DNA of 53,600 nt from a virus (taxonomy: Duplodnaviria > Caudoviricetes), in IMG/VR virus record IMGVR_UViG_3300030708_001013, positions 1 through 53,600 of that record. One strand, given 5' to 3'. Made by a program: the position numbers and the translations under genes. Under the pieces are notes generated by a model, which saw only the letters and a program-made list of their open reading frames with translations, searched no databases and was not told where the DNA came from. Below, in pieces: positions 1 through 48,046 of this stretch. Every line of letters begins with the position of its first letter. Position 1 is the stretch's first letter.

Positions 1-28
1 AAATATAAGCTTTGTTAGCTCTTCCATA
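1..28. repeat. Terminal overlap, left copy (circular assembly / circular permutation)
   Basis: 1-28 aaatataagctttgttagctcttccata matches 53573-53600 aaatataagctttattagctcttccata at 27/28. The mismatch is synonymous (AAC/AAT, Asn) in the giant minus-strand ORF. Confidence 0.92.
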
Positions 29-3000
29 TCTTATTAACTCTCTACCTTGTCTTGTTCCAAACAATAAAGAATTTTGCATTAATGTTTTAGGAGATACAAC
101 ATTTCTAATGGCACCATATTGATTATCAGGAGTTATTGGTACTAAATCTAATGCTCTATCCATAATTAACATAGATTGAGTTATTTCCCCTGGAACTATT
201 CTTTCATCAACTGTATTATTATTTAACTGATATTTAGTAGGTACTCCATTAGTAAGTCTAATAGCTTTCTTAACTACACCTAACATTTCCATATCATTAG
301 TTTTTTCTACTTCTTTTAGAACATCCATTTGATCTTGTATAGTTCCAAATATTTTTTGTATATCTATATCTTGATCTAATAATTTAAAATAAAATTCTAC
401 GTTTAATAAATATTCTCTAACTTCTTGCTCTGAATATCCACTATCCATTCTATTTAATTGAGTAAATACATTAGGACTTTTATTAATAGATATTTTATCT
501 ACTGTATCTTTTAATGAATCAAACTCTAATATAGATTTAATTAATTGTTTATTACTTGTAATCTGTAAATCAACTATAAGGTCTACAGCTTTTTGGTAAT
601 TAAGTTTATCTATTTCATTTAATATTTTATTATCAATAGTATCATTTAATACAGACATATATAACATTGATTGTATATCACCTGGAAGTTTACCAATATT
701 TTTAAACTTCATTATAACTTTTTCAGCTTTTACTAATGCTTTTAAAGCAAGTGTATCTATATCTGGTTCTTTAATATAAGTATTATTATCTATAGAATAT
801 AATTTATCTTTTTCTATTTTTTTAATTTTACCATAAATTGTATTATAATGTATTTCACTACCATTTACTTTATCAATTTCAATTCCAGAATTTATTAATC
901 TGTCAGCTAAATCATTATATATAATTTGTTTATTAGATAAATGACCATTATTTCTGATAGAATTTCTAATGTTTAATCTTTTATCAACGGAGTATGGTAT
1001 ATTAGTATCTTCTAATTTTGCATTTGGTAATCTGTCAAATAATATATATCTATTATAATCAAATATATCTTTAATTCTAGACATCATTAATTTAGCATCC
1101 ATAACTCTGTCAGGTGTACTAACACTAACTAATATAGTTTCTCCTTCATTATTCATAAAGGCAACGTCTTGTATTTTATTTGTTGATAATTTATCTCCAG
1201 ACATAGATGTAAAAAAGTCTACGCTTATTGGTTGTAAATTAGCTGGTCCATCAAATGCTTGATCTTCATTTCCATATGTAGGTTTACCTTTTGCATCATC
1301 TACATATGATAATAAATATCTTCCTACTACTTTTTTATCCTTATCAATTAATCTATATGATAAAATTTTTCCTGTTCTTGGATGTCTTTTTACTCTATCA
1401 ATTGTATATCCTTTTGGTGGAACTAAATATGTTTCAACATAACTATCTTGACCAGGTGGTAAGAAATTATAAGCTAATATGGTTCCAGGAAATTCTTTTA
1501 ATAATTTATCAGATGATTCTTTAGGTGTATTATAATTACTAATAAAGTCTAAATCATGTACAAGACCACCAGGTTTTCTGTAAACAGTTCCTTGTGTAGC
1601 AAGAACAATACTGCCTGTTAAAAATATATTTTCATCAGTACCAATGCTATTCATAATATCTTTAGCTAAAGGACTTTCATCAAATGCATCTTGAAATCCT
1701 ACTTGAACTCTATCTTCAATAGGTAGCGTTCTAATAAAGTCTTCTCCAGAAAAAGTTTTATTAATTACATTTTCTATTAAAGGCTCAAGCATAGACATAT
1801 CTAATGATTTTATTCCTGTAGCTATATCTAAAGCTATACGTCTAGCTTCTTCAGCTTGTGTTCTTACTTCATTATATTCATCAAGAAGTTTTTCTTCGTA
1901 ACCTTTTTGAAGTAAATCTTTAAACATTAATCTAACAGCTTCTATTCTACTTTTCTTTGATTTATTTGGCTGTTTAGCTAAATAATTTTTATAAGCTGGT
2001 GATTTTTTAAACTTATCATCATTTAATAAATCAATACTATATTTTCTTTGCATCATAAAACTAATAGTTTCTGCTAATGCAATAGCTACTTGTTCTATAT
2101 CTAATTCATCTAATGCAATTTTTTTATTAACAATATCTATAAATAATGTATCTGCATCTGAAATTTCAAAACCATATTTTTCTAAAGTTTTTAAAACATT
2201 ATCATTAATTAATTCAGACTGAACAATCATACTAGCTGTCATTTCTGAATTAGAAATATTTTTTAATTTATCAGATAAATCAATTCTTTCTAAATGTTGT
2301 GACAACAATGGAAATGTTGGTATTTTCCCTACTCTAGCAATGTATTCATCTAAAGTTTCTTGATCTCCCATCTTTAATGAATGCCAAGTAATTTGTTCTT
2401 GAGTATGCTTTCTATAATAATTAGTTGCAGTTTCTTTAGGATGAATTTTTCTTCTTTGATTTCTACTTAATAATGCTCTAGCTCCTGCAATATTAGATTC
2501 TATTTCTCCGATATTAGTTACATATGTATAGAATTGAAAATCTTTTTGTGATTGATGAATTGGTGTTCTATATCTAAATGCTGATGCAACTAATTGAGCA
2601 AACGTTGAAAAGAACTCATCTTCCCATCCTGAAACTGAATCATATTCCATTAATGCATTTTTAACACCATCAGTAGGAAATCCTTTTAACATCATATCAA
2701 TAGCATTTTTCTTTATAAACTCTGTATCTCTTTCACCTGTTTGATTTCCAAACATTTCTTGTTTATTTTTTAAAGATACATTAGGACTGCTTTCTAATAT
2801 TTTTAATATAATAATAACATTATCTAATATTGTACGCATTGTTTCATTATGACTTGCTTGTAGATTAGATCCTGTTTCAGTTTTAGGTATATTAGAATGA
2901 TCTTGTATAGCATGTTGCAGTTCATGAAAAAATGTTTCTAAAAATGGTTCACTAAAAGCTCTCATAAATTTAGGACCATCATATATAACTATTTCAGCAG

Positions 3001-6000
3001 GTCGACCTTTATAAGCACTCTGATAAGATCCTAAAGTAGCATTAGTATTTTTATCTTTATCTGATCTAAATCTTACCATTAAATCTTTTAGTTCTGGATA
3101 AGCTTTAAATAAAACAGGATGCTTTATTAAATCTCCAAGTTTTATATTTCTTCTTGTAGGTAAAATTCCATTATATCTAAATACTACTTTACTATCATCT
3201 ATTTCTAATCTCCAACCACCATCTTTTGTAAATCTATACAATCCAGTTTCAGCAAATATTTGATCTTCAGTTTTTCCTTCTGCTACTAATTGATTTGCTA
3301 AATCAATTAACTCTAGATTTATTCTATCTTCTTGAATAAAAGATGCAGTTAAATCAGGATCAATTTTTTTAGGAATAAAGTTTATATTTTTTAATGCTTG
3401 TTTTTTTATGTCTTTATTTCCAGCTTCTTTTAATAAGAATTTTTGTAATACATATTGTCCATACTGTACTGCATTATCAAACTTAATATTATCTGTATTA
3501 TCGTTTATAAAATTTTCTGCTAATTGTTGATGATTAACACGAATACTTTTGTCTGGATATCTTTGTACAATATCTCCAGTAGCAACAGCTCTTATATCGA
3601 TTCCTAAATCTCTATAGTATCCACCTAAATTAACTAACTCTAACATAATATCTGATACTGAAATTTTATTAGCAGGAGTTTTCTTTGGTGTAACTGTATG
3701 TTTTTTATCTGTTTGTTTTTTAAATATTCCTGATTGTGATCCTGATTTTGCAATTCTTTCATATCCATTATTTTCAAGATATGCAGCTATTTGTTCTTCT
3801 CCAAGATTATAACTATATCTTTTTAAATGATCAGCAGTATCCATTACAAATGTAGAGCCAGCTTCTATAGCTTTATCTATGTTTTTATATTCTCCTTGCA
3901 ATATACCATCTACAATAGGATCATATCTATCTCTTCTTTTACCATTAGAAGAAATCATTATAATATCTTCTGCAGTATAATTACCTGTATTAGCTAACCC
4001 AAATAACTCATCATACATTTTTCTATATTTATCAGTGGAGGAATTTTCTTTTCCTTGTCCTATAAATTGTGTAGCTATTTGTGTTTTAACTTGTTCTTTT
4101 GGAACATGTTTTAAAGCACTAGGATTTGAGTAGTTTCTTATTTCTTTTGTAGCTTTTTCTTGTACAGTTAATTTTTTAGGTTTTTCTTCAGGAAGTCTTT
4201 CTTTACTTTGCTCTACTAAATCATCGTATTTTTCTTCTTCTTTTTTTCTTCTTTCTTTTACTTTTTCAGCTTCTATTTTACTTTGTTTTTTATAGTCTTC
4301 ATTGTATTTATTTAAAGTAGATATAGCAGTAGGCTTTGAAAGTCTTTTTAATCTAACAGGATCTTCAGCTTTATCTTGTTCTGCTTGTAATTTTGGATTT
4401 ATATCTATTGCAACTAATATATTAAATAATTCTTCTGAATTAATTTCATTTGTTTCATATGCTTTTGCAGTTACTTCTTTTGATTTAGAGTTTATAACTT
4501 CTAATATATCAGGAGTAATAAATTGAGCATAACTTCCAGTCCATGTACTATTTTTTAATCTATGATCTAAAAATAAAACAGTAGATAAAGCTATTTTTTC
4601 TTCTTTAGATAAGTTATCAAATGATTCTCTTAAAAAAAGTATTTCAGTTTGAGTTAAATCTTTTGATCTAGTTCTATTATCTAGTTGTATAAAACCTGAT
4701 TTACTAACTGTTAATTTCTTTAATAGTTTAGATGTGCTTTTCTTTTCAAGAAGTTCAACAGCAGCTTGTCTTTGCTTTCTTATCCATGTTCCTTTTACTA
4801 TTCCTTTGCCACCATTAGATTCATATAAAGATTGTAATATATTAAATACATTTAATACTTCATTAACTTCAAGATATATACCTAATAATCCACGATCACT
4901 TTCTCCAAACTCATCAGTAAATAATTCAATTAATGAATAAAAATAACTAGTTGATTTTTCATCTGTTTCATATTGTCTTACTAAAATATTTAAAAGATCT
5001 TTAGAAATTAATTTATCTAATGCAGGTATATTATCTAATCCTATTTTTATATACTCATTAATTACATTATCAGAATGTTCTGCTAGTGGATTAATACCAG
5101 ATGTTACATCTGATACAGCGTTTCTACTTTGCATAATTCTTATAAGATTATCTTTACCTACTACAGACTTATGAGTTGCATTTAAATTTCTAATACCTCT
5201 TAATGCTGCTTTACTAAATTTTTTATGTGATTTTAAAAGTAATTTTAAACGAAGTATTTCAGTTTCTAAATCTGCTTTTGTTTTTAAATAACTAAATAAA
5301 TTTTTATCTTTAATAACTTTTTCAATTAATATATCTAGTTCTTCTTCAGGAAAAAATTTCTTATGTGTATAAAAAGGATTTTTATTTTCTTTGTTTATAC
5401 CCCCATTAACCATTTTTTTAGTTGATCTTCTTACTCTTAATAATTCATTAAATAGTTTTATATGATCAGACTTTAAAAATTCTATTAATGTTTTTGCATC
5501 AGCTCCTGCTAAAGAATCTTTAACCGCATCATTATTACTTGGAATATCATTATTATTTATATTGCTAAATAATAAAGCAGCAAGTATAGGTGCTGTATCT
5601 GCATTTATATTAGCAAAGAATAATCTAGGGTCTTTATGATCATCTAATGCTTGGTTTAAAAATATATCAAAAATACTTTTAGTACTTCTATAAGATGTTC
5701 TTGATTGTATATTTGCTCTATTTCCTTTTATTATTGGTTCATTAATAGTTATATCTTTATCTTTTAATCGAAGAGTTATTCGTTCAGGAATATCTATTGC
5801 ATCACTTAATAAAGCAGAAGAACCAAATGGATCAATATCTATAGAGTTAGTATTAGAATAAAAAGCATTATGCACAGCAATAATACCAATAACTTTATTT
5901 CTAACTAAATTAATATCAATAGAGTTTTCTCTTCCTGCTATTGAACCAAATTTTAAATCTTCATATATAGGATCAGACTCTCTATTAATTACAGAATCAA

Positions 6001-9000
6001 ATGCATCTTTAGGAATATCACCTTTAACATTATAATATTCAAAGGTATCAGCATTAATCCACATAATATGCTCTAATAATAAAGCTTTGTTTTCTAAAGT
6101 ATCTTGTAAATCTTTTCCTTTAGATTTAGATTTAAATACAAATTCTAAATTAAACACACCTTTTGGATTAACAACAACAAAGTTACCATCTACTAATTTA
6201 TACATTCCATTTTTTAAATTCTTTACTTTTCTAGCAAGTACTAAACTAAATCCTTTATCACCATCAAGGTCTTCCCCCATAGCTATACGAATACCATCTT
6301 CAGGAACAGCTACGTTAGTTTCAGAGTATTTATCACTAACAGGATTTTTTAATCTATTAAAAGAATGAGATGCATATGCACCAGATGGAACACGAGTTCT
6401 ATCTATAATTTCTCCTGGTATAATATAAGAACCATTTCTTTTTTCTATTTCATGTTCTAATACATGATTAATATCAGGAGTACCATCTTCTTTAACCCAG
6501 AACATATCAGCAAATATACTTGGATATTTTTTAATAAAATCTATAGCATCTTCTAATGAACCAAAAGGTTCGCCATTAAAATCAGTTCTAGTTTCATATC
6601 TTCCACCAACAATATTAACATTTATTCTAGCTAATTTAATTAAGTTATTTCCATTTTTATCTGTTACTTCTTCATATGGTGTAAGCTGTAGGTCTGCTTG
6701 TCCCATAGTTTGAGTAGCTAATCTTTTACCTTTATGTGCTAATAACTTTTTAGCTTGTGAAAGTTTTATATTTAATATTTCTTGTACAAATCTAGGATCA
6801 TTTTCAACGTCTAATCCTAATGCATAAGCTTCTTGTAATGCTGGACTTGATGTTTCATTTATTATTACTTTTAATTCTGCTTCATCAAATCTTGATAATG
6901 CAGCTTCATTTCTTAACTTAACTGCTTTTAATCCATTATTTAAATAAACTCTTTGTGTTTCTCCTAACTTAACATTATGTTCTATATTTAAACCATTAAA
7001 GTGTGCTTGTCTTTGACTAGGTATTTGACCATCATGATTAGAATTATTACTATGATGTAAGTCTTGAGATACAATTAAATTATCATTTTCTTCATATTTA
7101 ATAATTTTAGGATCTTCATTGTTTTCCCAATTAGTATTTTCTAAACGACTTAACTTTGCACCTGAAGGAAATACTATTGCTTCTATTTTATTATCTGGAT
7201 TATTTTTATTCCATGTATCTATATATGATTTTAATTTAGACATAACAGGATTAGAATCTCCAGCTAAATCCATATTAATCCAGTTTACTTTAATTAAAGT
7301 TCTATCTCCTGGTGTAGATGTAGATATATGTGCTTTTAGAGTATCTGTATCTTTTATTTCCATGTCATCTGCAATCTCTATTAACTTGTCATTAGTTAAC
7401 ATTGCTTGTCCATCAAATGCATCTCCTCCTGAATCTGTAATTCCTGGTATGTCTTCTATTTGAATTACATTTAAAGAGCCTCTATATCTCATACCATCTG
7501 TTAATATTTGAGATTGTCTTGCTATAATATTTAAAAAGTTAGCAGCAAGTTTTTGATCTTCTGACATATCTTTTGTTTTTTTATCTGACAACATATAATT
7601 AGATATATCGCCATGCATAGCATTCATAAGTATTATGTCATTGATAGCATAATGTGCTTCCATTATTTCTTTTTTTGTTAAATTTTTATCAGGATAAGAT
7701 TCAATTAATTTAACAGGATCTACAAATAACTTTTTAGCATCTTTATTTTTAGGCAATAAAGCTAAAGCTTTTTTAGCAGCATTAAGTAAATTAGATTTTT
7801 TAGTTCCATAATATTCCATTAACACAAAAGGTGCTGCACCTTTTTCTCCAAACCTACCCATATGATGATAGTAAAGATTTTTATCTTTAAGGTTTTTATT
7901 TATATTTCCTATTATTTCATTATCAAATATTTCTTCTATGATACTAGCAATTTCAACACCTGACATATTAGCTACATCTAAATTTTCAAACTCAACACCA
8001 TCAAGAAACATAACAAATCTTTGTTTAATATCTTTGTCTAATTCTTCTGGTATATTTAAACTTTTATATAGTTTGTCTATTATAAAATCAAAATGAGAGT
8101 CACCTCTTATTGCACTCTTTTGTGATTTTTCTACATTTGTAAACATTGGGTTAGATGTAAATTCACTAATATCACTCTTCATTACTGAATATAAAATACC
8201 TTCAGGTATTCCATCTTTTTCTGGAAAACCAAATACTGTAACAGTTCTATTATCTATTTTTTTATCAACAGCAGCACCATGTAGTATAGCATCTTTTAAT
8301 TTAGATCTTTTAGCTGGTCTTTTCTTTCCTGTTTTACTAACTGATATTTCTAAATCTTCTGATGTTAAAGTCATTATTCTTCTAACAATAGAATTATTTC
8401 TTTCTAAATTTATGTCAGCTAGTTTAGATATAGGTATTCCTGTATTTTCTTCAACAACAGAAAGTATTATAACTATTTCTAAAGATGTAAGATCTTCAAT
8501 ATTTTTATCAACTATTGGTAATAACTTTTCATAATGCTCTAGTTTTAAATCGGGATTATCATGAACATCTAAAACAGAGTCATACATTTCTTCAAATGGT
8601 AAAACTAAATTACTCATTTGTAATTTATCGCCTAGCTTTTTAAAATATCTTTGAACATGATTAGAAATATTTTTTCTATGAAAAGATCTCATATCTTCTA
8701 AAGAATTAGTTTGTGCAATTTTTTGTATTAATCTTTCTAATGATGTTGCATGAGTACCTTCTTTAAACTCTTTATATTTTTCTTCTGAAGATATAGCATC
8801 AATAAACCAATCAGCATCTTTTAATCTAATTATATTTATAGTTCCAGTTCTTCTATTTGATGCAGCTATTATTTGTTGTTGTATTTTTCCTTTTAAAAAT
8901 CTATCACCATGTGTGCTATCAAACTCCATATCTGAAGAAGTTGATTCTAACTGTTCTATTTCTTGATCTCCTTCTGGAGAGTTTTCATTAGGTAAAAAAG

Positions 9001-12000
9001 AATAAGTCATATCTGGATACATCATATGTAGTTTTTTTAATGCTCTTTTTCTTTTTCTTTCTACATTTGATTTATCATCATATGCTTCGCTTTCTAAAAT
9101 CTTTAATACTTCGATAGCAATAAATCTTTCAGTTTCACTTCTTGCTGTAATTACTTTTTGTTTTACTTCTTCAATAGCTTCTTGTTTAGCTTCTCTTATT
9201 TTTTTAGACATACGTTTTAATTTTTTAGCAGGAGTATCAGATTTAGTTTCAATAAATCTTTCAACTGCTCTTTTGCCAGTAGAGCCTATATCTTTTTCTA
9301 TTTCTTCTGCTATTTTTAAATCTGATGTAGACATTTCTTTTATTAGATTATTTTTAACTTCACCAGAAAAGTTTTGTAAAACAGCTACATTAAAATCATT
9401 TTTTTGTTTATCAGTAATTAAATCAAACAAATCATTTTCTAAATCATTTTCCCTAGAGTCTTGCGATCCATATCTATTTTGAACTAATGATATAAATAAC
9501 TCAAAATCTCCTCTTGAATCTTGAGAGTATGTATTTAAATAATCTAAAATTTTCTGTGCTTTTATTGCTTTCTTTGTAGGCTTACCTTTATATTTATATT
9601 TAGATATTGTAGTTAATTTACTTCTAATTGACTTTAAATTTTTTTCAGCTGTAAAACTTATTAAAGCACGACCACTCATTAATTTTTTTAAATTAAGTTC
9701 TAATGATTCTTCTTCTAATACTCTTGCAGCACTATCACCACCTAAACTTATTGAAGGAGTTAATATAATTTTATTGTCTACATTAGTTGCTTGAAAAATA
9801 CCACCTGCTGTTCTGCCTCCAGCAGCTTGCTCAACAGCTATAGTTTCTCCAATAAATATCTCTGTATCAGGTTGCTCTGCTAACTTTTTAATCATTGTAT
9901 CAACAAAGTTTTCTAATTGAGATCTTATTCTTTTTCTTGAATTAGCTAAACTAGCTACAGATACTTGTCCTTGTTGAGTTTTTTCAAGTTCATCAAACAA
10001 TCTTAATTCTTTTTCTAGAAAATCTATTGCAGCTTTTCTTTTAGCTTCTATATATTCTTTTTTAGATTTGTAACCTTGTTTTTTATACTCATTTGGATTA
10101 GCTAATGCATTATTATATTCTTTAATATATGCATCATTTGATCTTTTAAATTCACCACTTTTAATTTTTCTATTAATAAGAGCTTCAGCTTGTTTGTTAG
10201 TTTTTGTAATATTAATTAAATTTAATCCTGAAAATAATCTTTTATATGTTGCACCTAACTCTTTATCTTTTTCTAATTCTTTTCTTTTCTTTGCATCTAT
10301 CTTAAATACATTAGTAGTAAATTGCCTTTCTTCAATAGTAGTTTGTCCTGTTTTATCTTTAGTTGTTCTTGTTCTTGTATCAGTAGTTATAACATTTATT
10401 GGTTTAATAATACCACTATCTATTAAATTAGATAATAGTTCTGCATCTTCTTTATTTTCAGCTAATCTAACAATTAATCTTTCTGAAACAATTTGTCTTA
10501 TTGCTTTCTCTTTTATTCCTTCTGTTACTTCTGTTTTACTTTCTGCTGCTAATTCTTCAGCACGTTTATTAACTATAGAGTTTAAATCAGAAAGACTATC
10601 TATATTTAATCCTTGTTGCACTAAAAATTGTTGTTGTTTACCTGGTCTTAATATAGCCCCAACAATACCTTTTTGATACCATTTTTTATTTGCTTCAAAG
10701 TCTAACATTGATTTAACAAACTGTTCTGTTTGTTCAAATGCTTCAGCTGCTTCTTCATCAGTTCTAAAGTCTCCTTTACTTTGAAATTCTAAAAAGTTTT
10801 TTAACATATCTATTTGTTGAGAAAATTCTTCTTGTAAAGTATCGCCTCTTAATTTACTAACAACACCTGCACCTGCAGGTATAATACCTACAGCTGTTAA
10901 TATTGCTGATGCTTCTTTAGGATGTAATACAGGAAAGAATGCTTTATCAACTAGGTTTTCTGCATAAGACATTCCTTGTGCTTTACGTTCATCTGAATCT
11001 AAACCTAGTATAGCAGAAGTTGTCATTTCAATCCATTCTTCTGCTGCTTCTTCAAATATACTTCCGTATTGAGAAATTTGTTTAAAGTCTTTCATTAACT
11101 GTGTTTTGCCAGATAATGATTTACCAATAGTATTGTTATCAAAAAAATCTTTTGTAGTTTTAGCTATAGCTGGACCACCTAAAGTTTTGTATGCTTTACT
11201 TTTTACTACACTATCTTTAACTGGTTTAAGAAGTTTATGTACTCCAATGTTTTTAAATAATTTTGAAGCAAGATCAAATCCTACAGTTTCTACTAATATA
11301 GCTAATACAGCTTGTGCTTCTTTTTTTGCTATATCTGCACCTGTAAATTTATCAAACTTAAACTTACCATCTTCAACATATACAGATTCTAATTCTTCAT
11401 TTTTTAAATCACTAAATACTTTTGGTTGTTGAATTAATAAACTTCCTGGACCAGCTATTCCTAATCTAGCACCTTTAGATTTTATAAAAGTAGAAACATT
11501 TTTATGATATGCTTCTTCCATTAAGTTTCTATACATTTGATTTCTAGTAACAGCTGGTATTTTTTGACCTTTTGCATCTAGTTTTCTAACTTTTCTTAAA
11601 ATTTCTTTTGATTGTTCTTTTGTTATTTTAAATGGACTAGCAACATTTATTACTTCTTTACCACCTTTTAATTGAGTATATAATCCTCTAACAGTTTTTC
11701 CATCTTTAGATGACTCAAGAATAGAAGCTATTTTATTACTAATTCCTTTTTCTAAAGGTTTTACACTACCTGCTAATGCTCTACCTGGTGCTAAAAATGA
11801 TGCCATATAAGGTAATGATTCCAAAAATACATCAGCTACAGTACCACCCCATGTATTACCTCTATATTTTTCTATTAAAGTATCATTATACCAAGATGCT
11901 ACTTTTTTTTCAGCTGCTTCTCTTTCCATAGGATCAACATAATCATCAGCATCTAAACGTAATAATGTTTCTTCTATTTCCCTTTCATCTCTTTGTGACC

Positions 12001-12787
12001 ACCAAACAGCAGCATAATCTCCAAGCATAGCACCTGCTGATGTTAATACAATACCAGCAAGTAAAGCGGGTATACCTACTACAGGTATTGCTGCTGCTGC
12101 TGCAGCACCACCTGCACCAAGTACACCTATACCTGCTACTCTTGCAAATATATTTTTTTCTGTAGGATCAATTGCTCTTTGTATATTTTCTCCTGCAGTT
12201 CTATCTCCTTTTCTTTGAGCTAATCTATAAGCAGTAGCTTCATCTAATACATAAGAATAACCTTCAGGACTTTGTAATTTTTCTCTTAATGTATCTACTT
12301 GAGATGTTTGAGATCTGTTATCTGTTATACTTATAGATGGATATTTAATACCAAAATAGTTTTCTACTTCTTCAGTAGAATATGGACTAGAGTAACCTAC
12401 TTCAAATGTTCCATCTTCTTTATATGCACCACCTATATTACCATCAGCACCATTATAAATAGAATCTGTAGTAAATTCTATATGACTTGGCTTACGATAT
12501 TTAGGACTTAATCTAGTAGATCTTACAGGACTACCAAAGGTTTCTTTATATAAACCTCTATAATCATAAATACTTTCATCTAACTCTGGTACAAATCGTT
12601 TCCAATTTTGATAATCTTGTTCCTCATCATCTGTTAGTTCGGTATTATAATCATTAGTATAATCTCTTGTGGATTCATCAAATAATGCTTTTCTTGCTTC
12701 ATTAAGTGCAGCTAATTCTTCAAAAATAAAATCTTCTTGAGTTCTTTGATTGTCTACACCTTCTTCGAGTGGGTTGTCATTAATCAT
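1..12787 (-). CDS. Giant virion/ejection polyvalent protein with two-barrel RNA polymerase (N-terminal ~4,262 aa; continues at 53572..50691, ~5,222 aa total)
   Basis: ATG at 12787 (MINDNPLEEGVDNQRTQEDF...). The ORF track reports no minus-strand ORF here, as expected if the frame runs off the window edge without a stop. Segments translated by hand at 12100, 9800, 7414, 6271, 5650, 4000, 2926, 1615 and 28 read as open protein, and those with codon positions checked share one frame. It lies at the end of the virion operon. Confidence 0.92.
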   Translation of the reverse strand, partial: MINDNPLEEGVDNQRTQEDFIFEELAALNEARKALFDESTRDYTNDYNTELTDDEEQDYQNWKRFVPELDESIYDYRGLYKETFGSPVRSTRLSPKYRKPSHIEFTTDSIYNGADGNIGGAYKEDGTFEVGYSSPYSTEEVENYFGIKYPSISITDNRSQTSQVDTLREKLQSPEGYSYVLDEATAYRLAQRKGDRTAGENIQRAIDPTEKNIFARVAGIGVLGAGGAAAAAAIPVVGIPALLAGIVLTSAGAMLGDYAAVWWSQRDEREIEETLLRLDADDYVDPMEREAAEKKVASWYNDTLIEKYRGNTWGGTVADVFLESLPYMASFLAPGRALAGSVKPLEKGISNKIASILESSKDGKTVRGLYTQLKGGKEVINVASPFKITKEQSKEILRKVRKLDAKGQKIPAVTRNQMYRNLMEEAYHKNVSTFIKSKGARLGIAGPGSLLIQQPKVFSDLKNEELESVYVEDGKFKFDKFTGADIAKKEAQAVLAILVETVGFDLASKLFKNIGVHKLLKPVKDSVVKSKAYKTLGGPAIAKTTKDFFDNNTIGKSLSGKTQLMKDFKQISQYGSIFEEAAEEWIEMTTSAILGLDSDERKAQGMSYAENLVDKAFFPVLHPKEASAILTAVGIIPAGAGVVSKLRGDTLQEEFSQQIDMLKNFLEFQSKGDFRTDEEAAEAFEQTEQFVKSMLDFEANKKWYQKGIVGAILRPGKQQQFLVQQGLNIDSLSDLNSIVNKRAEELAAESKTEVTEGIKEKAIRQIVSERLIVRLAENKEDAELLSNLIDSGIIKPINVITTDTRTRTTKDKTGQTTIEERQFTTNVFKIDAKKRKELEKDKELGATYKRLFSGLNLINITKTNKQAEALINRKIKSGEFKRSNDAYIKEYNNALANPNEYKKQGYKSKKEYIEAKRKAAIDFLEKELRLFDELEKTQQGQVSVASLANSRKRIRSQLENFVDTMIKKLAEQPDTEIFIGETIAVEQAAGGRTAGGIFQATNVDNKIILTPSISLGGDSAARVLEEESLELNLKKLMSGRALISFTAEKNLKSIRSKLTTISKYKYKGKPTKKAIKAQKILDYLNTYSQDSRGDFELFISLVQNRYGSQDSRENDLENDLFDLITDKQKNDFNVAVLQNFSGEVKNNLIKEMSTSDLKIAEEIEKDIGSTGKRAVERFIETKSDTPAKKLKRMSKKIREAKQEAIEEVKQKVITARSETERFIAIEVLKILESEAYDDKSNVERKRKRALKKLHMMYPDMTYSFLPNENSPEGDQEIEQLESTSSDMEFDSTHGDRFLKGKIQQQIIAASNRRTGTINIIRLKDADWFIDAISSEEKYKEFKEGTHATSLERLIQKIAQTNSLEDMRSFHRKNISNHVQRYFKKLGDKLQMSNLVLPFEEMYDSVLDVHDNPDLKLEHYEKLLPIVDKNIEDLTSLEIVIILSVVEENTGIPISKLADINLERNNSIVRRIMTLTSEDLEISVSKTGKKRPAKRSKLKDAILHGAAVDKKIDNRTVTVFGFPEKDGIPEGILYSVMKSDISEFTSNPMFTNVEKSQKSAIRGDSHFDFIIDKLYKSLNIPEELDKDIKQRFVMFLDGVEFENLDVANMSGVEIASIIEEIFDNEIIGNINKNLKDKNLYYHHMGRFGEKGAAPFVLMEYYGTKKSNLLNAAKKALALLPKNKDAKKLFVDPVKLIESYPDKNLTKKEIMEAHYAINDIILMNAMHGDISNYMLSDKKTKDMSEDQKLAANFLNIIARQSQILTDGMRYRGSLNVIQIEDIPGITDSGGDAFDGQAMLTNDKLIEIADDMEIKDTDTLKAHISTSTPGDRTLIKVNWINMDLAGDSNPVMSKLKSYIDTWNKNNPDNKIEAIVFPSGAKLSRLENTNWENNEDPKIIKYEENDNLIVSQDLHHSNNSNHDGQIPSQRQAHFNGLNIEHNVKLGETQRVYLNNGLKAVKLRNEAALSRFDEAELKVIINETSSPALQEAYALGLDVENDPRFVQEILNIKLSQAKKLLAHKGKRLATQTMGQADLQLTPYEEVTDKNGNNLIKLARINVNIVGGRYETRTDFNGEPFGSLEDAIDFIKKYPSIFADMFWVKEDGTPDINHVLEHEIEKRNGSYIIPGEIIDRTRVPSGAYASHSFNRLKNPVSDKYSETNVAVPEDGIRIAMGEDLDGDKGFSLVLARKVKNLKNGMYKLVDGNFVVVNPKGVFNLEFVFKSKSKGKDLQDTLENKALLLEHIMWINADTFEYYNVKGDIPKDAFDSVINRESDPIYEDLKFGSIAGRENSIDINLVRNKVIGIIAVHNAFYSNTNSIDIDPFGSSALLSDAIDIPERITLRLKDKDITINEPIIKGNRANIQSRTSYRSTKSIFDIFLNQALDDHKDPRLFFANINADTAPILAALLFSNINNNDIPSNNDAVKDSLAGADAKTLIEFLKSDHIKLFNELLRVRRSTKKMVNGGINKENKNPFYTHKKFFPEEELDILIEKVIKDKNLFSYLKTKADLETEILRLKLLLKSHKKFSKAALRGIRNLNATHKSVVGKDNLIRIMQSRNAVSDVTSGINPLAEHSDNVINEYIKIGLDNIPALDKLISKDLLNILVRQYETDEKSTSYFYSLIELFTDEFGESDRGLLGIYLEVNEVLNVFNILQSLYESNGGKGIVKGTWIRKQRQAAVELLEKKSTSKLLKKLTVSKSGFIQLDNRTRSKDLTQTEILFLRESFDNLSKEEKIALSTVLFLDHRLKNSTWTGSYAQFITPDILEVINSKSKEVTAKAYETNEINSEELFNILVAIDINPKLQAEQDKAEDPVRLKRLSKPTAISTLNKYNEDYKKQSKIEAEKVKERRKKEEEKYDDLVEQSKERLPEEKPKKLTVQEKATKEIRNYSNPSALKHVPKEQVKTQIATQFIGQGKENSSTDKYRKMYDELFGLANTGNYTAEDIIMISSNGKRRDRYDPIVDGILQGEYKNIDKAIEAGSTFVMDTADHLKRYSYNLGEEQIAAYLENNGYERIAKSGSQSGIFKKQTDKKHTVTPKKTPANKISVSDIMLELVNLGGYYRDLGIDIRAVATGDIVQRYPDKSIRVNHQQLAENFINDNTDNIKFDNAVQYGQYVLQKFLLKEAGNKDIKKQALKNINFIPKKIDPDLTASFIQEDRINLELIDLANQLVAEGKTEDQIFAETGLYRFTKDGGWRLEIDDSKVVFRYNGILPTRRNIKLGDLIKHPVLFKAYPELKDLMVRFRSDKDKNTNATLGSYQSAYKGRPAEIVIYDGPKFMRAFSEPFLETFFHELQHAIQDHSNIPKTETGSNLQASHNETMRTILDNVIIILKILESSPNVSLKNKQEMFGNQTGERDTEFIKKNAIDMMLKGFPTDGVKNALMEYDSVSGWEDEFFSTFAQLVASAFRYRTPIHQSQKDFQFYTYVTNIGEIESNIAGARALLSRNQRRKIHPKETATNYYRKHTQEQITWHSLKMGDQETLDEYIARVGKIPTFPLLSQHLERIDLSDKLKNISNSEMTASMIVQSELINDNVLKTLEKYGFEISDADTLFIDIVNKKIALDELDIEQVAIALAETISFMMQRKYSIDLLNDDKFKKSPAYKNYLAKQPNKSKKSRIEAVRLMFKDLLQKGYEEKLLDEYNEVRTQAEEARRIALDIATGIKSLDMSMLEPLIENVINKTFSGEDFIRTLPIEDRVQVGFQDAFDESPLAKDIMNSIGTDENIFLTGSIVLATQGTVYRKPGGLVHDLDFISNYNTPKESSDKLLKEFPGTILAYNFLPPGQDSYVETYLVPPKGYTIDRVKRHPRTGKILSYRLIDKDKKVVGRYLLSYVDDAKGKPTYGNEDQAFDGPANLQPISVDFFTSMSGDKLSTNKIQDVAFMNNEGETILVSVSTPDRVMDAKLMMSRIKDIFDYNRYILFDRLPNAKLEDTNIPYSVDKRLNIRNSIRNNGHLSNKQIIYNDLADRLINSGIEIDKVNGSEIHYNTIYGKIKKIEKDKLYSIDNNTYIKEPDIDTLALKALVKAEKVIMKFKNIGKLPGDIQSMLYMSVLNDTIDNKILNEIDKLNYQKAVDLIVDLQITSNKQLIKSILEFDSLKDTVDKISINKSPNVFTQLNRMDSGYSEQEVREYLLNVEFYFKLLDQDIDIQKIFGTIQDQMDVLKEVEKTNDMEMLGVVKKAIRLTNGVPTKYQLNNNTVDERIVPGEITQSMLIMDRALDLVPITPDNQYGAIRNVVSPKTLMQNSLLFGTRQGRELIRYGRANKAYI
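1040..1690 (-). other. Pol-beta superfamily nucleotidyltransferase-like domain within the giant ORF
   Basis: IFLTGSIVLATQGTVYRKPGGLVHDLDFI (GS...DxD) and C-terminal DAKLMMSRIKDIFDY (K...RxKDxxD). Confidence 0.7.
2420..3330 (-). other. LPD23-like domain with HExxH zincin motif within the giant ORF
   Basis: IFAETGLYRFTKDGGWRLEIDD, KLGDLIKHPVLFKAYPEL, FFHELQHAIQ (H at 2926) and YVTNIGEIESNIAGAR...RRKIHP match the LPD23-associated metallopeptidase pattern. Confidence 0.8.
5560..7690 (-). other. Double-psi beta-barrel (crAss/phi14:2 gp66-like) RNA polymerase core within the giant ORF
   Basis: Ordered motifs: NAMHGDISNY, ARQSQILTDG, DAFDGQAML (D at 7414), LKAH...LIKVNW, RTRVPS, NVAVPEDGIRIAMGEDLDGDK (first Asp at 6271, about residue 2173), NKVIGIIAVHNAFY, FLNQALDDHKDPRLFFANIN. 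Confidence 0.88.
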
Positions 12788-36635: not shown

Positions 36636-36918
36636 CAAGTTTCTGTACTTTGTACAAAATCTGTATAGAAGTTTCTATATCCCCCCTGATTTGAAATTTA
36701 TCTAAAAAATTTTACCAAGTACTGAAAGTGTATAACAGCCGTAGATGAGGTAGTATATATTATATATAAACACATAGACACTGCAAACATTGGTCATCTA
36801 TATAGGTAGATAGATACGACAACTTGCTGTTAGGATCCCCCTGCTAGGTGGTGCTGTCTATGTATGTATAGATAAACAACTAAAATAATCCTTTCAAACG
36901 TTATCGTATGCTATCATC

Positions 36919-36970
36919 AGAGTTGCTTTACAGCGAACTCTTCTAAACGTTATCTTTATCGGTAATATTG
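36919..36970 (+). promoter_or_regulatory. Hairpin + AAACGTTATC-N6-GGT element, copy 1 (candidate early promoter)
   Basis: agagtt-gc-tttaca-gc-g-aactct, then aaacgttatc (36945-36954) tttatc ggt; lies just upstream of the RBS of the gene at 37001. Confidence 0.6.
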
Positions 36971-37000
36971 CCATTAATTATTAATTATAAAGGAGACATT

Positions 37001-37276
37001 ATGTCTAATACAAAGAGTGATTCTAGGGTCGAACTTGATAAAGATCCTGCGGTTGTTGGGTTTATGCATTTTAACAAGAATGGAGATTCTGAAATGTGTA
37101 GCCCAATGTACATCGGTGGTGGTGCTAAACCAGGCACAACCAGCAACGATATACAAGCTGGTCTAGTCGACGGCTCGTATATCGGATTCCTGAATCCATA
37201 TAAATCAGGCAAAGGTCATCTGTTGGTTGTTAAAGCTCGCAATGCTAAAGCAGGCAACAGATATACTGCAATGTAA
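37001..37276 (+). CDS. Early hypothetical protein (possible DUF736/SSB-like)
   Basis: AAGGAG RBS before the ATG at 37001. GFMHFNKNG...PMYIG loosely resembles small phage SSB-like proteins. Confidence 0.7.
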   Translation: MSNTKSDSRVELDKDPAVVGFMHFNKNGDSEMCSPMYIGGGAKPGTTSNDIQAGLVDGSYIGFLNPYKSGKGHLLVVKARNAKAGNRYTAM

Positions 37277-37286
37277 TGGATTCAGT

Positions 37287-37328
37287 ATATAGATGCCTAT
37301 CAATGTTTGGTAGGTGTCTATGCTTTTT
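37287..37328 (+). terminator. Intrinsic terminator
   Basis: tatagatgcctatcaa-tgt-ttggtaggtgtctatg-cttttt. Confidence 0.75.
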
Positions 37329-37429
37329 ATATTGCGGGATAACGCAGAAGAGCTAGAGATTTTTTTAATAATAATATTCGGGAACAACGTTCGCAGTGCA
37401 TAATATAGCGGATTAGACATGATGAGATT

Positions 37430-37618
37430 ATGCAAATATTTAAGGAGATAATTATGGAAAGAGTAGTATGTTGTATCTGTAATGTAGACCTATCAGATAG
37501 GGATGACCTAGAGAATAGAATGTGTTACAGCTGTGTTGTCGGAGATCCGATGGAATTAGATAATCATCTTATAAATATAGGTGGATTAGACATAATGATG
37601 AGAAAGGATGTACAATGA
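37430..37618 (+). CDS. Small zinc-finger-like protein
   Basis: CCIC...CYSC. The AAGGAG RBS suggests the real start is MERVV. Confidence 0.65.
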   Translation: MQIFKEIIMERVVCCICNVDLSDRDDLENRMCYSCVVGDPMELDNHLINIGGLDIMMRKDVQ

Positions 37619-37893
37619 AAGTACAAGAGATAAATACTGCAGAGTATGATGCTATCAAAGATAAAGCTGTTGATATGTCACAAGACCAGTTGTTAGATGA
37701 ATTTGCACATTTAACAATACGAGAGAATGAACTCGAAGGTAAAGTAAAAGATATGCAAAAGGATATAGAGTTTGCAAATAAATTGTTTAAATCTATTAGT
37801 AGGAAATTAGAATATGTATTGACATATCTAACTGATGAACAGAAGACTGTCATCGAATCCAACTGGCAAAAACGTAATAAGATAGACCAATAG
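37615..37893 (+). CDS. Coiled-coil hypothetical protein
   Basis: 92 aa, ATGA-coupled to the upstream gene. Confidence 0.7.
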   Translation: MKVQEINTAEYDAIKDKAVDMSQDQLLDEFAHLTIRENELEGKVKDMQKDIEFANKLFKSISRKLEYVLTYLTDEQKTVIESNWQKRNKIDQ

Positions 37894-37908
37894 GTCTGTC
37901 TTTCTTTC
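37879..37908 (+). terminator. Intrinsic terminator
   Basis: aagatagacc-aata-ggtctgtctt-tctttc. Confidence 0.7.
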
Positions 37909-37914
37909 ATAGGT

Positions 37915-37970
37915 AAAGCTTTCGCTTTCAGCGGAAAGCTTTTAAACGTAATCTTTAATGGTTTATAATT
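37915..37970 (+). promoter_or_regulatory. Hairpin + AAACGTAATC-N6-GGT element, copy 2
   Basis: aaagcttt-cgc-tttca-gcg-g-aaagcttt, then aaacgtaatc (37944-37953) tttaat ggt ttataat. Confidence 0.6.
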
Positions 37971-37974
37971 GCAA

Positions 37975-38570
37975 TATAGACCAGCACTGGCTGAATAAAC
38001 GTGTGGATAAGTTAGCGTTAAGGCACTTGGACTTGAGCAATGTACAAATGTATGAGCAGAGAGTGATAGGTACGAGTAGAATAGAAAATTTCTATAATTC
38101 CTCGAAAGTTACAGGTAACAGAATATTCCTGTGTGCAACTTATTAAAGTATGAGAGTAATCTCATGCTTTAATTTTTTATACTATAGTATCAGCAAAGTA
38201 TCTAGAGCTGTATAAATATGATAGATACGGGTAGCTACCAGCTTGAGTGGTAGCTTGGTTTGACTGTCGCCAAAGGAGATTCTAAATATATAAATAGGGG
38301 AGCGGCACGGAGACGAGCAGAAATCAAGATGCGTTTGTAGTTGGCATACGTCGACAAGTAACTGATGATGTAATCGATTCCTACCCCAGGTATATTTAGA
38401 ATACAGACAGTCTCTATTTTTTTGATAGCTATGGTTAAACGAACCATTCCCGAATCCCGATATGGAGCAGGACTACACGTTCATGTTTGTAACCTTAAGT
38501 GATGAATCATTCTGAACAGTATAATGTTATTCATTGGCTAGTGTAGTAGGGAAGTCTATAGCTATCATTT
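37975..38570 (+). ncRNA. Cluster of putative structured non-coding RNAs
   Basis: Nested long-range inverted repeats: ataagtt/aacttat, gactgtc/gacagtc, attctaaatata/tatatttagaat, tgatagctat/atagctatca, actacac/gtgtagt. A terminator lies at 38144-38178. No convincing ORF. Confidence 0.5.
38144..38178 (+). terminator. Intrinsic terminator
   Basis: taaagtatgaga-gtaa-tctcatgcttta-atttttt. Confidence 0.75.
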
Positions 38571-38604
38571 ATTTATTAACAAGTTATTAACAAGGAGAAA
38601 AATT

Positions 38605-38835
38605 ATGAGTGTTCAATACGGACATTTTTTAACAGTATTAGATTATGAAAATGCACAGACTTATGTCTATAGATTTACTAAAGATATGTATGATCATTAC
38701 AATCAAATAAATGGTTGGGAAGATTTAATCTTTGAAAAATTAGGATTCAGAGAAAAAGATATTCATTGGATGTGCAATACATCAACTAAAATAGAAAGTA
38801 TAACCGAACCTATAACCTGGAGTGTAAATGATTAA
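38605..38835 (+). CDS. Early hypothetical protein
   Basis: 76 aa with AAGGAG RBS. Confidence 0.75.
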   Translation: MSVQYGHFLTVLDYENAQTYVYRFTKDMYDHYNQINGWEDLIFEKLGFREKDIHWMCNTSTKIESITEPITWSVND

Positions 38836-39238
38836 CTATATATTATTGATACCATTACTAATACATATAGAATCTTCAGGTAGAGATTATGTAGTAGGAG
38901 ATAATGGAACAGCTGTAGGTTGCCTACAGATAACAGCAGGAGTAATTAAAGATGTTAATAGAATATATAAGACAGATTATACGAAAGAAGATTGCTATAA
39001 TAGGAAGACTTCCTCGGATATTTGCATTAAGTATATATCGTATTGGCTTGAGAAAGCAGTACAAAGAGAACAAGCAGCGATATACAACCCTTACGAAATG
39101 GCTTGTCGCATCTGGAATGGTGGACCCAGGGGATACCAGAAAGAGTCGACAGAAGTTTACTGGGAAAAAATTAAACGTAGAGCAAAGGAGGTAGGAACTT
39201 ATGATGTTGCCAACTATAAAGTTAGTAATGATAGATGA
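38828..39238 (+). CDS. Lysozyme-fold muramidase/transglycosylase (i-type/destabilase-like)
   Basis: IESSG...GDNG.AVGCLQI...RIWNGGPRG....T..YW.K, with a hydrophobic N-terminus. Confidence 0.8.
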   Translation: MINYILLIPLLIHIESSGRDYVVGDNGTAVGCLQITAGVIKDVNRIYKTDYTKEDCYNRKTSSDICIKYISYWLEKAVQREQAAIYNPYEMACRIWNGGPRGYQKESTEVYWEKIKRRAKEVGTYDVANYKVSNDR

Positions 39239-39500
39239 TAGCAGAACAAGAATTGAAGCTGATATGTCTATAGTAAGTAACAAAGATTGGTCTAAAAGTA
39301 TAACAGTAGAACATAACTACTATAAAGTTTTAGAGGGTTTATTAAAATACCATAGAGAAAGCACTGCTAAAATACAGGATTGCTTTCCCTTCCTAACTGC
39401 AGATGAAAGGGAGTTTATGCTGACAGGCTTAACACCCGAAGAGCAAGAAAGAATATTTAAAAGCGATGAAGATATTCTGATGGGTTCTGAATCTGCATAG
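39201..39500 (+). CDS. Conserved phage hypothetical protein
   Basis: GGAGG upstream. IQDCFPFLTADEREFMLTGLTPEE motif is common in phage early proteins. Confidence 0.75.
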   Translation: MMLPTIKLVMIDDSRTRIEADMSIVSNKDWSKSITVEHNYYKVLEGLLKYHRESTAKIQDCFPFLTADEREFMLTGLTPEEQERIFKSDEDILMGSESA

Positions 39501-39622
39501 TCGCATTGTGATACTTAACCGAGGCAGCGGAATGTTATGAGCATTGTAAATCTGTCCAAACCTGCAGTGAGTAGTCTATGATAAAATAGGTCCACATGGG
39601 TAGTAAAAATAAGTATTGAAGT

Positions 39623-39693
39623 TAGCTATATAGCGGGTAATTTTTAGAATGAAAAATTACAAGAAGATCAGCGATGTCTTCGCTATATAGCTA
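39623..39693. other. Branched inverted repeat between convergent genes (terminator/processing site)
   Basis: tagctatatagcg (39623-39635) pairs with cgctatatagcta (39681-39693) and encloses the hairpin gtaattttt/aaaaattac. Confidence 0.65.
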
Positions 39694-39696
39694 CAG

Positions 39697-40386
39697 TTAT
39701 TCTGAAGCAGAGTCAAGTTTATTTTTAGAATTATTTTCACGAAGATTAGGAGATAGACCTGTAAACTGTATGTCTTGTACTTCAACATAATCTGCTTTGT
39801 CTATTTCTTTTTTACGCAGACCCATCTCAACATTGATTACTAAACCTTTATCAGTCTTATCTTTTTTGTCTGAATACTTATCGGGATCAAGAGCTTTTAA
39901 TTGTACCTCTAATAATTTATCAGAATATTTTTTTCTATATCCTACTATTTGTCCTAAATGATTTACCATAGGTTCATCAACACCTTCAACAGCACGTTCA
40001 TATAATGCTTCTTCTGCACCATGTAATCTTCTATTTTTACGTTCTTCTTTCGCAAGTAAATATAATTTTTTTACTGCTTTACATTTGCGTAGTGCTAGAG
40101 ATTCAAAGGTAGACCAACTATCGAATCCTGCTTTGGAAGTTACAACCAACATCTTACCACCAACTGCAATACCTTCTAATGCACTACGAATACAACGTCT
40201 ATCTTTTTTGCATTCATCGAATACAGGTAACTCATCTTCTGCACGATTTAGATCCAACCAGGAGACATCCTCTGCAGATTTCATTCTGTCAATAAACTCG
40301 TAAGATGATTCGGGTATTGGTTCTTCACCTGATAAATATACTCTAACACCTTTTTCATATCTATATGGATTTGGTAATTCATTCAT
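39697..40386 (-). CDS. terS: Terminase small subunit-like protein
   Basis: AEEALYERAVEGVDEP...G..VGYRKKYSDKLLEVQLKALDPDKY is a typical small-terminase C-terminal pattern. Confidence 0.72.
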   Translation of the reverse strand: MNELPNPYRYEKGVRVYLSGEEPIPESSYEFIDRMKSAEDVSWLDLNRAEDELPVFDECKKDRRCIRSALEGIAVGGKMLVVTSKAGFDSWSTFESLALRKCKAVKKLYLLAKEERKNRRLHGAEEALYERAVEGVDEPMVNHLGQIVGYRKKYSDKLLEVQLKALDPDKYSDKKDKTDKGLVINVEMGLRKKEIDKADYVEVQDIQFTGLSPNLRENNSKNKLDSASE

Positions 40387-40480
40387 AACTAATAATTAGA
40401 ATTTAATATAACAAATGTAAATAATAAATAAACGTTAATAAACGTTAGTGTGGTGGATAATGATTTAACCAGTGGTTAAA

Positions 40481-40560
40481 AAAAGTTTATTCTTCCTGCT
40501 ACTTCTCGCTTTTTTTCAGAGCTAAACTTTTAAACATTATCCTGCATGGTTAAATAATTT
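40481..40560 (+). promoter_or_regulatory. Hairpin + AAACATTATC-N6-GGT element, copy 3
   Basis: aaaagttta...cgc-(T run)-cagagc-taaactttt, then aaacattatc (40532-40541) ctgcat ggt taaataat; upstream of the RBS of the gene at 40586. Confidence 0.55.
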
Positions 40561-40585
40561 TAATATATATATAAAGGAGATAACG

Positions 40586-41653: not shown

Positions 41654-41664
41654 AGGAGGTTCAT

Positions 41665-44785: not shown

Positions 44786-44801
44786 ATAAAGGAATAATAT
44801 T

Positions 44802-47846: not shown

Positions 47847-48046
47847 TTAAAAAAACAAAAAATACACCTGAATTACATTATGGAATGATGTCAAGATGGT
47901 GTGATCTAATGCAGTTAAATACTGCAGAATATGCACCAGAATGGGTATCACATGTATTTGATAGATCAATGACAATACTTCAACATAAACATCCTGAACT
48001 ATTAGATCAGGTTCGTAAAATTATTAAAGAGAACTTTGATGGGTAA
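47834..48046 (+). CDS. Hypothetical protein
   Basis: 70 aa with AGGAG RBS. Confidence 0.7.
   Translation: MSQIVKKTKNTPELHYGMMSRWCDLMQLNTAEYAPEWVSHVFDRSMTILQHKHPELLDQVRKIIKENFDG

Follow-up and report, generated by a model that had tools for sequence, protein, structure and literature searches.

The stretch of DNA analysed here, called the window throughout, is the whole of the IMG/VR virus record IMGVR_UViG_3300030708_001013 (53,600 nucleotides, 98% complete according to IMG/VR). Its minus strand carries a giant open reading frame, divided by the ends of the record, and the product of this frame contains a predicted RNA polymerase with two double-psi barrels, of the kind known from gp66 of phage phi14:2 and from the RNA-silencing polymerase QDE-1. 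The frame and the parts of it that concern the polymerase are as follows (residues are numbered along the giant protein).

2..12787, minus strand: first part of the giant open frame, residues 1-4262, with its ATG at 12787 and running off the start of the window
50691..53600, minus strand: last part of the giant open frame, 969 residues and a stop codon, entering at 53600 and stopping at 50691
5423..8170, minus strand: conserved polymerase block, residues ~1540-2455, delimited from the matched ranges of relatives, alignments and structure models
7052..7495, minus strand: predicted first double-psi barrel (beta-like), residues ~1765-1912, with FDG (D1792, G1793), K1818, K1833 and K1878
7423-7406, minus strand: DAFDGQ in the translation, residues 1789-1794
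6740..7051, minus strand: predicted helical connector, residues ~1913-2016, from the secondary structure of the model and its collinear alignment to gp66 222-1550
6023..6739, minus strand: predicted second double-psi barrel (beta-prime-like), residues ~2017-2255, with R2132-x-P2134, S2140-H2141 and the metal loop D2173-L-D2175-G-D2177
6394-6386, minus strand: RVP (an RxP motif) in the translation, residues 2132-2134
6271-6257, minus strand: DLDGD in the translation, residues 2173-2177, within GEDLDGDK
5873..5941, minus strand: candidate bridge helix, residues 2283-2305, including IGIIAVHN; a long helix at model residues 753-775
5890-5867, minus strand: IGIIAVHN in the translation, from residue 2300
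5650-5627, minus strand: ALDDHKDP in the translation, from residue 2380

The first nine residues of the last part of the frame repeat the last nine of the first part, and an independent database protein of 5,225 residues (P0003) runs unbroken over the junction with 93% and 97% identity to the two parts. The gene product is therefore ~5,222 residues long. Because window positions 1-28 and 53573-53600 form a 28-nucleotide terminal repeat with one mismatch (G versus A), the record is circularly closed or permuted; IMG/VR labels it linear, and the giant gene is nonetheless continuous through the end junction. A frame that crosses the ends of a record labelled linear could be taken for an assembly artefact or a chimera, but the overlap of the ends, the independent protein that spans the junction and the presence of the same architecture in independent contigs from several collections make that explanation almost certainly wrong. 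The sequence-only reading that first proposed a polymerase here was confined to 5560-7690, a small part of the ~5,222-residue frame, which went unnoticed there. The motifs that it quoted are genuine, and all of them lie on the minus strand within 5560..7690.

Searching with residues 1501-2700 (HMMER, run in full over 1.84 billion cluster representatives) matched 17 proteins, six of them giants of 4,185-5,202 residues and the others fragments; a word-indexed search added a twin of 97% identity and a relative of 4,571 residues with 47% identity. All full-length members are giant (4,185-5,225 residues) and have the metal-loop motif near the middle, and a giant frame with the motif was found at eight of eight IMG/VR loci. 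D-x-D-G-D was kept in all 12 relatives that cover the site (10 of the 17 HMMER matches and the two word-indexed ones), the remaining seven HMMER matches being fragments that end before it or start after it. Since every relative covering the site has kept it, the alignments indicate that the motif is not a chance occurrence in ~5,200 residues. Its second position varies, with DFDGD, DQDGD, DKDGD, DYDGD and DNDGD in relatives and DLDGD in the window.

In the family alignment of the first-barrel half, R1757, G1765, D1792, G1793 and K1818 were invariant and K1833, N1835 and K1878 nearly so; K1818, K1833 and K1878 would be the equivalents of lysines of the beta subunit. Invariant positions of the second barrel were P2124, G2125, E2126, R2132, P2134, S2140, H2141, R2145, G2171, D2173, D2175, G2176 and D2177. 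The string R-x-P...S-H...G-x-D-x-D-G-D resembles what we take to be the beta-prime pattern preceding NADFDGD. DFDGD is given as part of the beta-prime pattern in the accessible text of 10.1101/2020.03.07.982082. If the polymerase fold were a catalytically dead relic, kept for a structural role within an ejection protein, one might point to a remainder of the giant protein far larger than the polymerase and to the poor prediction of the model after the second barrel; the three aspartates, R-x-P/S-H and the first-barrel lysines are, however, invariant across relatives of only 22-49% identity, and we consider such a relic very improbable. Word-indexed profile searches for relatives of 133-846 residues returned only two known fragments and those for 847-2,415 residues returned none, which is weak evidence that mid-sized forms do not exist. 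No relative was found in 185,579 prokaryote species, each represented by one genome and searched with a single peptide pattern, hence a weak negative.

The fold was examined with structure models. The model of residues 1531-2480 had a mean predicted local distance difference test score (pLDDT) of 64.8, with the barrels mostly at 80-93. Foldseek comparison with the PDB placed phi14:2 gp66 (6vr4) first (E 1.4e-13), followed by QDE-1 chains (E 5e-6 to 6e-5), then RDR2 and, weakly, the large subunits of cellular polymerases. When the first half (residues 1630-2000) was modelled separately (pLDDT 69.6, high over model residues 1-283), Foldseek matched it to gp66 at E 1.1e-5, and a Foldseek-independent comparison with 48,161 chains had unrelated double-psi barrels further down the list, over model residues 136-283. 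The best solved structure for both halves was gp66, with QDE-1 and RDR2 second by fold for both barrels. Because the models of both halves match gp66 and double-psi barrels, the modelled region consists of two barrels joined by a helical connector, in the gp66/QDE-1 order; the connector between the barrels of gp66 and QDE-1 is described in the accessible text of 10.1101/2020.03.07.982082. The sequence-only reading would have fallen with a predicted structure devoid of double-psi barrels, and the models contain two, closest to gp66 and next to QDE-1 and RDR2. The gp66 alignment stops at model residue 773, which corresponds to gp66 residue 1550 and lies within the gp66 bridge helix (1529-1559); helix 2283-2305 may be the bridge helix here.

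Of the traits of the two-barrel superfamily, two double-psi barrels, a D-x-D-x-D loop in the second and conserved basic residues in the first are present, and in view of the models the region very likely encodes a polymerase of the two-barrel fold. The BFVD database gave 34 matches at E <=0.001, many of them giant proteins encoded by crAss-like phages. The best, A0A516MBM4 (E 6e-48, 27% identity), is an unnamed viral protein, so UniProt already contains a relative, apparently unannotated. PF00940, the single-subunit RNA_pol family, had no match, but control genomes were likewise unmatched, and the fold seen here is not the T7-like one.

Outside the polymerase block, the giant protein has the following features, the hydrophobic stretches being called by the Kyte-Doolittle scale (window 19, threshold 1.6).

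12020..12139, minus strand: strongly hydrophobic stretch near the N-terminus, residues 217-256
10850-10915, minus strand: second hydrophobic stretch, residues 625-646
3182..3319, minus strand: LPD23 (large polyvalent protein associated domain 23), residues ~3157-3202, Pfam E 4.3e-7, 30.1 bits against a cut-off of 27
2912..2926, minus strand: HELQH (an HExxH motif) at residue 3288, possibly of a zincin-type peptidase
51594..52427, minus strand: conserved C-terminal region, from comparison with relatives, with hydrophobic stretches at residues ~4645-4663 and 4904-4922

LPD23 was the only Pfam match at E up to 5 in six pieces of the giant protein. The HELQH region matched no Pfam family, and is a candidate peptidase by its motif alone; among eight relatives examined, HExxH stands at a comparable place in P0003, P0004, P0007 and P0009, occurs at residue 1377 of P0018, which is not comparable, and is missing from P0008, P0016 and P0017. 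Relatives at near and intermediate distance were 39-55% identical in the C-terminal region, and L018 was 28% identical; the language-model features of the C-terminal 969 residues were like those of phage clusters bearing LPD38 or LPD39 (0.97; a lead only). The ~5,222-residue protein has the traits of a phage-type polyvalent protein: giant size, several domains, an LPD domain (LPD23) and a late-gene position in the structural operon.

The genes around the giant frame, and a repeated element among them, are these.

34192-35706, minus strand: terminase (TerL), in the structural operon, annotated from Pfam and PHROGs
31890-34178, minus strand: portal, in the structural operon, annotated from Pfam and PHROGs
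29668-30660, minus strand: capsid protein, in the structural operon, Pfam P22_CoatProtein
36880..48428, plus strand: small genes and replication/recombination genes (MoxR-like ATPase, VWA/metallopeptidase, exonuclease, ERF, DnaB), from Pfam and PHROGs
36891-36905, 36940-36954, 37939-37953 and 40527-40541, plus strand: copies of the repeated 15-nucleotide core CTTTYAAACRTWATC, within a shared element of ~38 nucleotides

Unrecognised genes follow downstream of the capsid gene, and after them the giant gene closes the minus-strand structural operon as its last large gene, co-directional with the terminase, portal, capsid and tail-region genes and downstream of them. By computation, then, a polymerase with an intact, conserved active centre lies inside a giant protein encoded among virion genes. 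The phage had been described from its letters as ~53 kb long, with a P22-like head, lambdoid-style recombination and replication genes and no DNA polymerase, and this description mostly stands: it agrees with the record length, the capsid protein matches P22_CoatProtein at E 1.7e-6, ERF and DnaB_C were matched in Pfam, and PF00476 and PF00136 (DNA polymerase families A and B) had no match in the window, positive controls being detected. The gene then called Cas4-like has a PHROG 'exonuclease' match only. There was no primase among the Pfam or PHROG matches of window genes, no search having been aimed at primase families, and no tRNA genes were found in the window. Shine-Dalgarno-like sites (GGAG, GAGG or AGGA at -20 to -4) preceded 22 of the 38 ATG frames of at least 100 residues in the window, against a background of 8%; the same count in Pelagibacter phage HTVC115P gave 24 of 50. 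The structural operon also contains sugar-modifying genes. A 698-residue protein (27169-29265, minus strand) combines a GlcNAc-transferase domain (E 5e-48) with a weak sulfotransferase match, and a 586-residue protein (15617-17377, minus strand) has a family 2 glycosyltransferase domain at its start.

Three copies of CTTTYAAACRTWATC, at 36940, 37939 and 40527, lie upstream of gene starts (ATG at 37002, 37958 and 40586, respectively); the fourth is at 36891. The best copy reads TTTAAA, 17 nucleotides, TATAAT. The statistics are weak: there were five matches where 2.5 were expected, a number that 5 of 100 shuffles also reached. A convincing upstream hairpin was present at two of the four copies, and of five relatives only the 97% one yielded a copy of the element. 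It may serve as an early promoter, read by either the host or the phage enzyme, next to terminators, and we do not claim it as a promoter of the polymerase described here.

Taking fold, conservation and gene position together, we think it probable that the giant protein carries an RNA polymerase of the gp66/QDE-1 type, with two barrels in a single chain, that is packed in the virion and transcribes early genes. In the model, D2173, D2175 and D2177 of the second barrel would hold the catalytic magnesium. By analogy with N4 gp50 and the crAss-like enzyme, the giant protein would be carried in the head and leave it together with the DNA, passage through the envelope perhaps being aided by its hydrophobic ends, and the polymerase would transcribe the plus-strand early block (~36.9-48.4 kb) before any phage protein is made. 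Host or other factors would then take over, as in phi14:2, in which the early transcripts come from gp66 and the later ones from the host enzyme (accessible text of 10.1101/2020.03.07.982082). We infer that the protein is packaged and ejected, that its template is DNA and which genes it transcribes early; the plus-strand block 36880..48428 is the candidate set of early genes and the presumed target of the polymerase.

The enzyme might instead act in the cell after its synthesis, for example by making primers or origin transcripts for replication. The window encodes DnaB, ERF and an exonuclease without a detected family A or B DNA polymerase, and the missing primase (among Pfam and PHROG matches, not from a search for primases) would fit the same role. 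QDE-1-type enzymes use single-stranded DNA (accessible text of 10.1101/2020.03.07.982082), and there are phage two-barrel enzymes that the accessible part of 10.1101/842583 does not report as virion proteins. The gene lies in the structural operon, however, away from the replication genes, and an enzyme needed only in the cell would have no use for fusion to ~4,300 more residues, hydrophobic ends and polyvalent-protein domains, which makes an intracellular role unlikely. Quite unlikely, in our view, is that RNA is made for other ends, through synthesis, on an RNA template or on none, that opposes host defence or labels the incoming DNA. By fold, its nearest relatives in cells are the RNA-silencing polymerases QDE-1 and RDR2, and polyvalent proteins often carry anti-defence modules (accessible text of PMC5512222); but the closest structure, gp66, is DNA-dependent and transcribes early genes, and no sequence feature suggests an RNA template.

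Several results weigh against a virion-packed, gp66-type early polymerase. Its packaging is argued from position and analogy. The CTTTYAAACRTWATC element resembles an ordinary sigma-70-type promoter and would fit early transcription by the host enzyme in place of the polymerase described here. Since gp66 carries DFDID and not DxDGD, the window enzyme is not a strict gp66 ortholog. The models are middling overall (global template modelling score of 0.25 to gp66, root-mean-square deviation of 13.3 over the long alignment), and the residues after ~2300, where the trigger loop would be expected, are poorly predicted (pLDDT <50). Sequence searches gave no support of their own: phmmer of residues 1501-2700 against PDB sequences produced chance matches only, none of them to 6VR4, and the family profile of the second barrel produced a chance match only in the PDB; no polymerase family of Pfam, RdRP (RNA-dependent RNA polymerase; PF05183) and Rpb1 included, was matched at E up to 10 by five members of the second-barrel alignment, nor was PF05183 at E 0.01 by residues 1501-2700, and four pieces of the giant protein matched no PHROG family.

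Comparison with known systems shows which aspects of this enzyme have precedents. Like the window protein, phi14:2 gp66 is a very large single chain with two double-psi barrels and a connector, and its gene lies among structural genes. The sequence-only reading had set the metal loop DLDGD apart from the DFDID of gp66 (accessible text of 10.1101/2020.03.07.982082), and the contrast holds. gp66 has 2,180 residues, whereas the module described here sits within ~5,222 and has no detectable sequence similarity to it. Among the traits of a gp66 orthologue, gp66 as the closest structure was found, but a DFDxD motif and detectable sequence homology were not. The genome, too, differs from those of gp66-type crAss-like phages in its size of 53.6 kb, its non-crAss head genes, its Shine-Dalgarno sites and the absence of a detected DNA polymerase. 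The eukaryotic RNA-silencing polymerases QDE-1 and plant RDR2, second-ranked in fold likeness for both barrels, differ in that their Pfam family PF05183 is unmatched here and in that the setting here is a phage giant protein.

A parallel in architecture is gp96 of phage P23-45, a two-barrel virion polymerase fused into a tape measure protein of ~5,000 residues in a non-crAss phage (accessible text of 10.1101/2022.12.01.518664). N4 gp50 (Schitoviridae) has the same layout in one giant virion protein, with an N-terminal ejection part, a central polymerase and a C-terminal part bearing HExxH, as described by Iyer et al. in the accessible text of PMC5512222, and N4-like phages have the MoxR-like ATPase gene in common with the window. 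Since the N4 enzyme has a T7-like fold, unrelated to the two-barrel fold found here, this likeness is one of architecture and not of descent. YonO-like and FP_oengus-type phage RdRP homologues, known from phages of Firmicutes and Actinobacteria, are likewise single-chain, two-barrel enzymes with a DxDGD loop (accessible text of 10.1101/842583), but they stand alone, are far smaller and have helix-turn-helix domains. Phage proteins named RdRP gave weak BFVD matches (E 2e-4 and 1.5e-2) and one weak language-model lead (0.87); the crAss-like giant proteins match more strongly in BFVD. Because the P23-45 virion polymerase and the DxDGD phage RdRP homologues are known, the kind of enzyme is already known, and D-x-D-G-D in a phage two-barrel enzyme is not itself new. 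What is new is a separate, very rare family, always central in proteins of 4.2-5.2 thousand residues and occurring both in small phages with Shine-Dalgarno sites and head genes of the Alphaproteobacteria-phage kind and in distant crAss-like genomes. We found no description of this family in the literature, where coverage of subscription journals was poor and supplements were outside the scope.

Hallmark proteins were compared by tblastn with 50,697 phage records, in which the polymerase region and the C-terminal 969 residues of the giant protein had no match. The best TerL matches were Pelagibacter phage EXVC031P (41%), Burkholderia phage BcepC6B (39.5%) and other phages of Proteobacteria, with no crAss-like phage among the matches listed (25 of 30 records). 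The capsid protein was closest to that of Rhizobium phage RHph_TM3_14A (37%), followed by pelagiphages, a roseophage and phages of the Gram-positive Clostridium and Aeribacillus at ~29-32%; its matches came to 321 records, the majority of them Mycobacterium phages (212). The portal matched 35 records (Roseobacter 11, Rhizobium 7, Pelagibacter 4, Puniceispirillum 2, and others). Overall, the TerL, capsid and portal matches had 23-41% identity, to phages of Pelagibacter, Rhizobium, Roseobacter, Burkholderia, Vibrio and others, and neither crAss-like nor N4-like phages were among the matches listed for the three proteins. Judged by these hallmark proteins, the genome is not that of a crAss-like phage, its head genes resembling those of Alphaproteobacteria phages and its TerL that of Proteobacteria phages. 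The sequence-only reading would have lost its novelty had TerL and capsid placed the phage inside a described family with virion RNA polymerases, and these matches speak in its favour. The proposal of a distinct lineage of phages carrying such enzymes gains support from the fold and the non-crAss hallmark genes, the word 'virion' coming from gene position and architecture.

The cultured relatives by head genes, HTVC115P and RHph_TM3_14A, have their own DNA polymerase, and the giant protein was unlike the large proteins in the first 50 kb of each (the large gene of the Rhizobium phage being cut short there). As a separate observation, the window pairs a MoxR-like ATPase with a VWA/DUF2201 metallopeptidase-like protein (40586-43847, plus strand); RHph_TM3_14A has this pair as well, and many N4-like phages have the ATPase.

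Among relatives of the giant protein, the closer ones (L003, L007, L008, L009/L014 and L015) have flanking genes in common with the window (a metallophosphoesterase, the next gene and DnaB), and the capsid protein of G001 is 66% identical to that of the window. L009/L013/L014 and L015, with 33-34% identity in the second barrel, have 50-55% G+C as against 26-35% in the window, so the family spans hosts of very different base composition. Distant relatives have the giant protein alone in common with the window. G002 (L021-L026), a complete genome of 80,514 nucleotides with terminal repeats, encodes a giant protein of ~4,611 residues with DFDGD. Its TerL matches crAss-like or uncultured gut phages only (23-25%) and not the window TerL, the separation of the window from crAss-like phages by TerL resting on the disjoint tblastn match sets of the two proteins. 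Its head genes belong to PHROGs different from those of the window, its capsid protein had no tblastn match in the 50,697 phage records, and its Shine-Dalgarno-like sites (5 of 69 frames) are at background. BLASTP of all window frames against all G002 frames gave a single match, the polymerase module, with 25% identity over 452 residues (E 1.6e-13), running from FDG in the first barrel to DxDGD in the second; the G002 polymerase region itself matched nothing in the PDB or the phage records. G002 may represent an undescribed, distant crAss-like group, to judge from these sequences.

Shine-Dalgarno sites numbered zero or one in L011, L012 and L016, and 5 of 9 frames had them in L018. The second gene upstream of the giant gene has lysin or tape-measure-like pieces in G002, L012 and L016, which by analogy fits a block of ejection proteins. 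The G002 terminase was not found in five fragmentary relatives, nor the window TerL in four, results of little weight in incomplete genomes. Because a distant relative occurs in a genome with a crAss-like terminase, the polymerase lineage is not wholly separate from crAss-like phages. G002, L011, L012 and L016 (crAss-like, without Shine-Dalgarno use) stand on one side and the window (Shine-Dalgarno sites, head genes like those of Alphaproteobacteria phages) on the other; the family thus occurs on both kinds of backbone, and this suggests, at the level of sequence, that the polymerase module has been exchanged between phage backbones. A wider version, in which the family is an old DxDGD branch of the gp66/QDE-1 lineage and an ejected giant-protein module that moves between unrelated backbones and host phyla, seems to us doubtful.

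Studies of injected two-barrel RNA polymerases have dealt with crAss-like Bacteroidota phages (~100 kb) and one Thermus siphovirus. The window would put the same type of enzyme in a genome of half that size, with head genes like those of marine and soil Alphaproteobacteria phages, Shine-Dalgarno sites and no DNA polymerase found, and the enzyme type would then be more widespread than thought. It has kept the DxDGD loop, the cellular and RdRP type, and its polymerase module is the only sequence link to the crAss-like backbone, so that a transcription-competent ejection protein may itself be an exchangeable module. The family also provides a new case on which to test the proposal that eukaryotic RdRPs came from phages. 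Drobysheva et al. proposed that the RNA-silencing polymerases of eukaryotes were donated by a phage of the protomitochondrial lineage; on the doubtful wider version above, an alphaproteobacterial host would make the window phage one of the kind they had in mind. The polymerase domain is compact and self-contained, and open to expression and study.

Directly upstream of the giant gene, a gene for a 683-residue protein (12796-14847, minus strand) has only 41% identity to its counterpart in a contig whose giant protein is ~95% identical. Such divergence is the pattern expected of a host-range (receptor-binding) protein, as far as sequence comparison can indicate.

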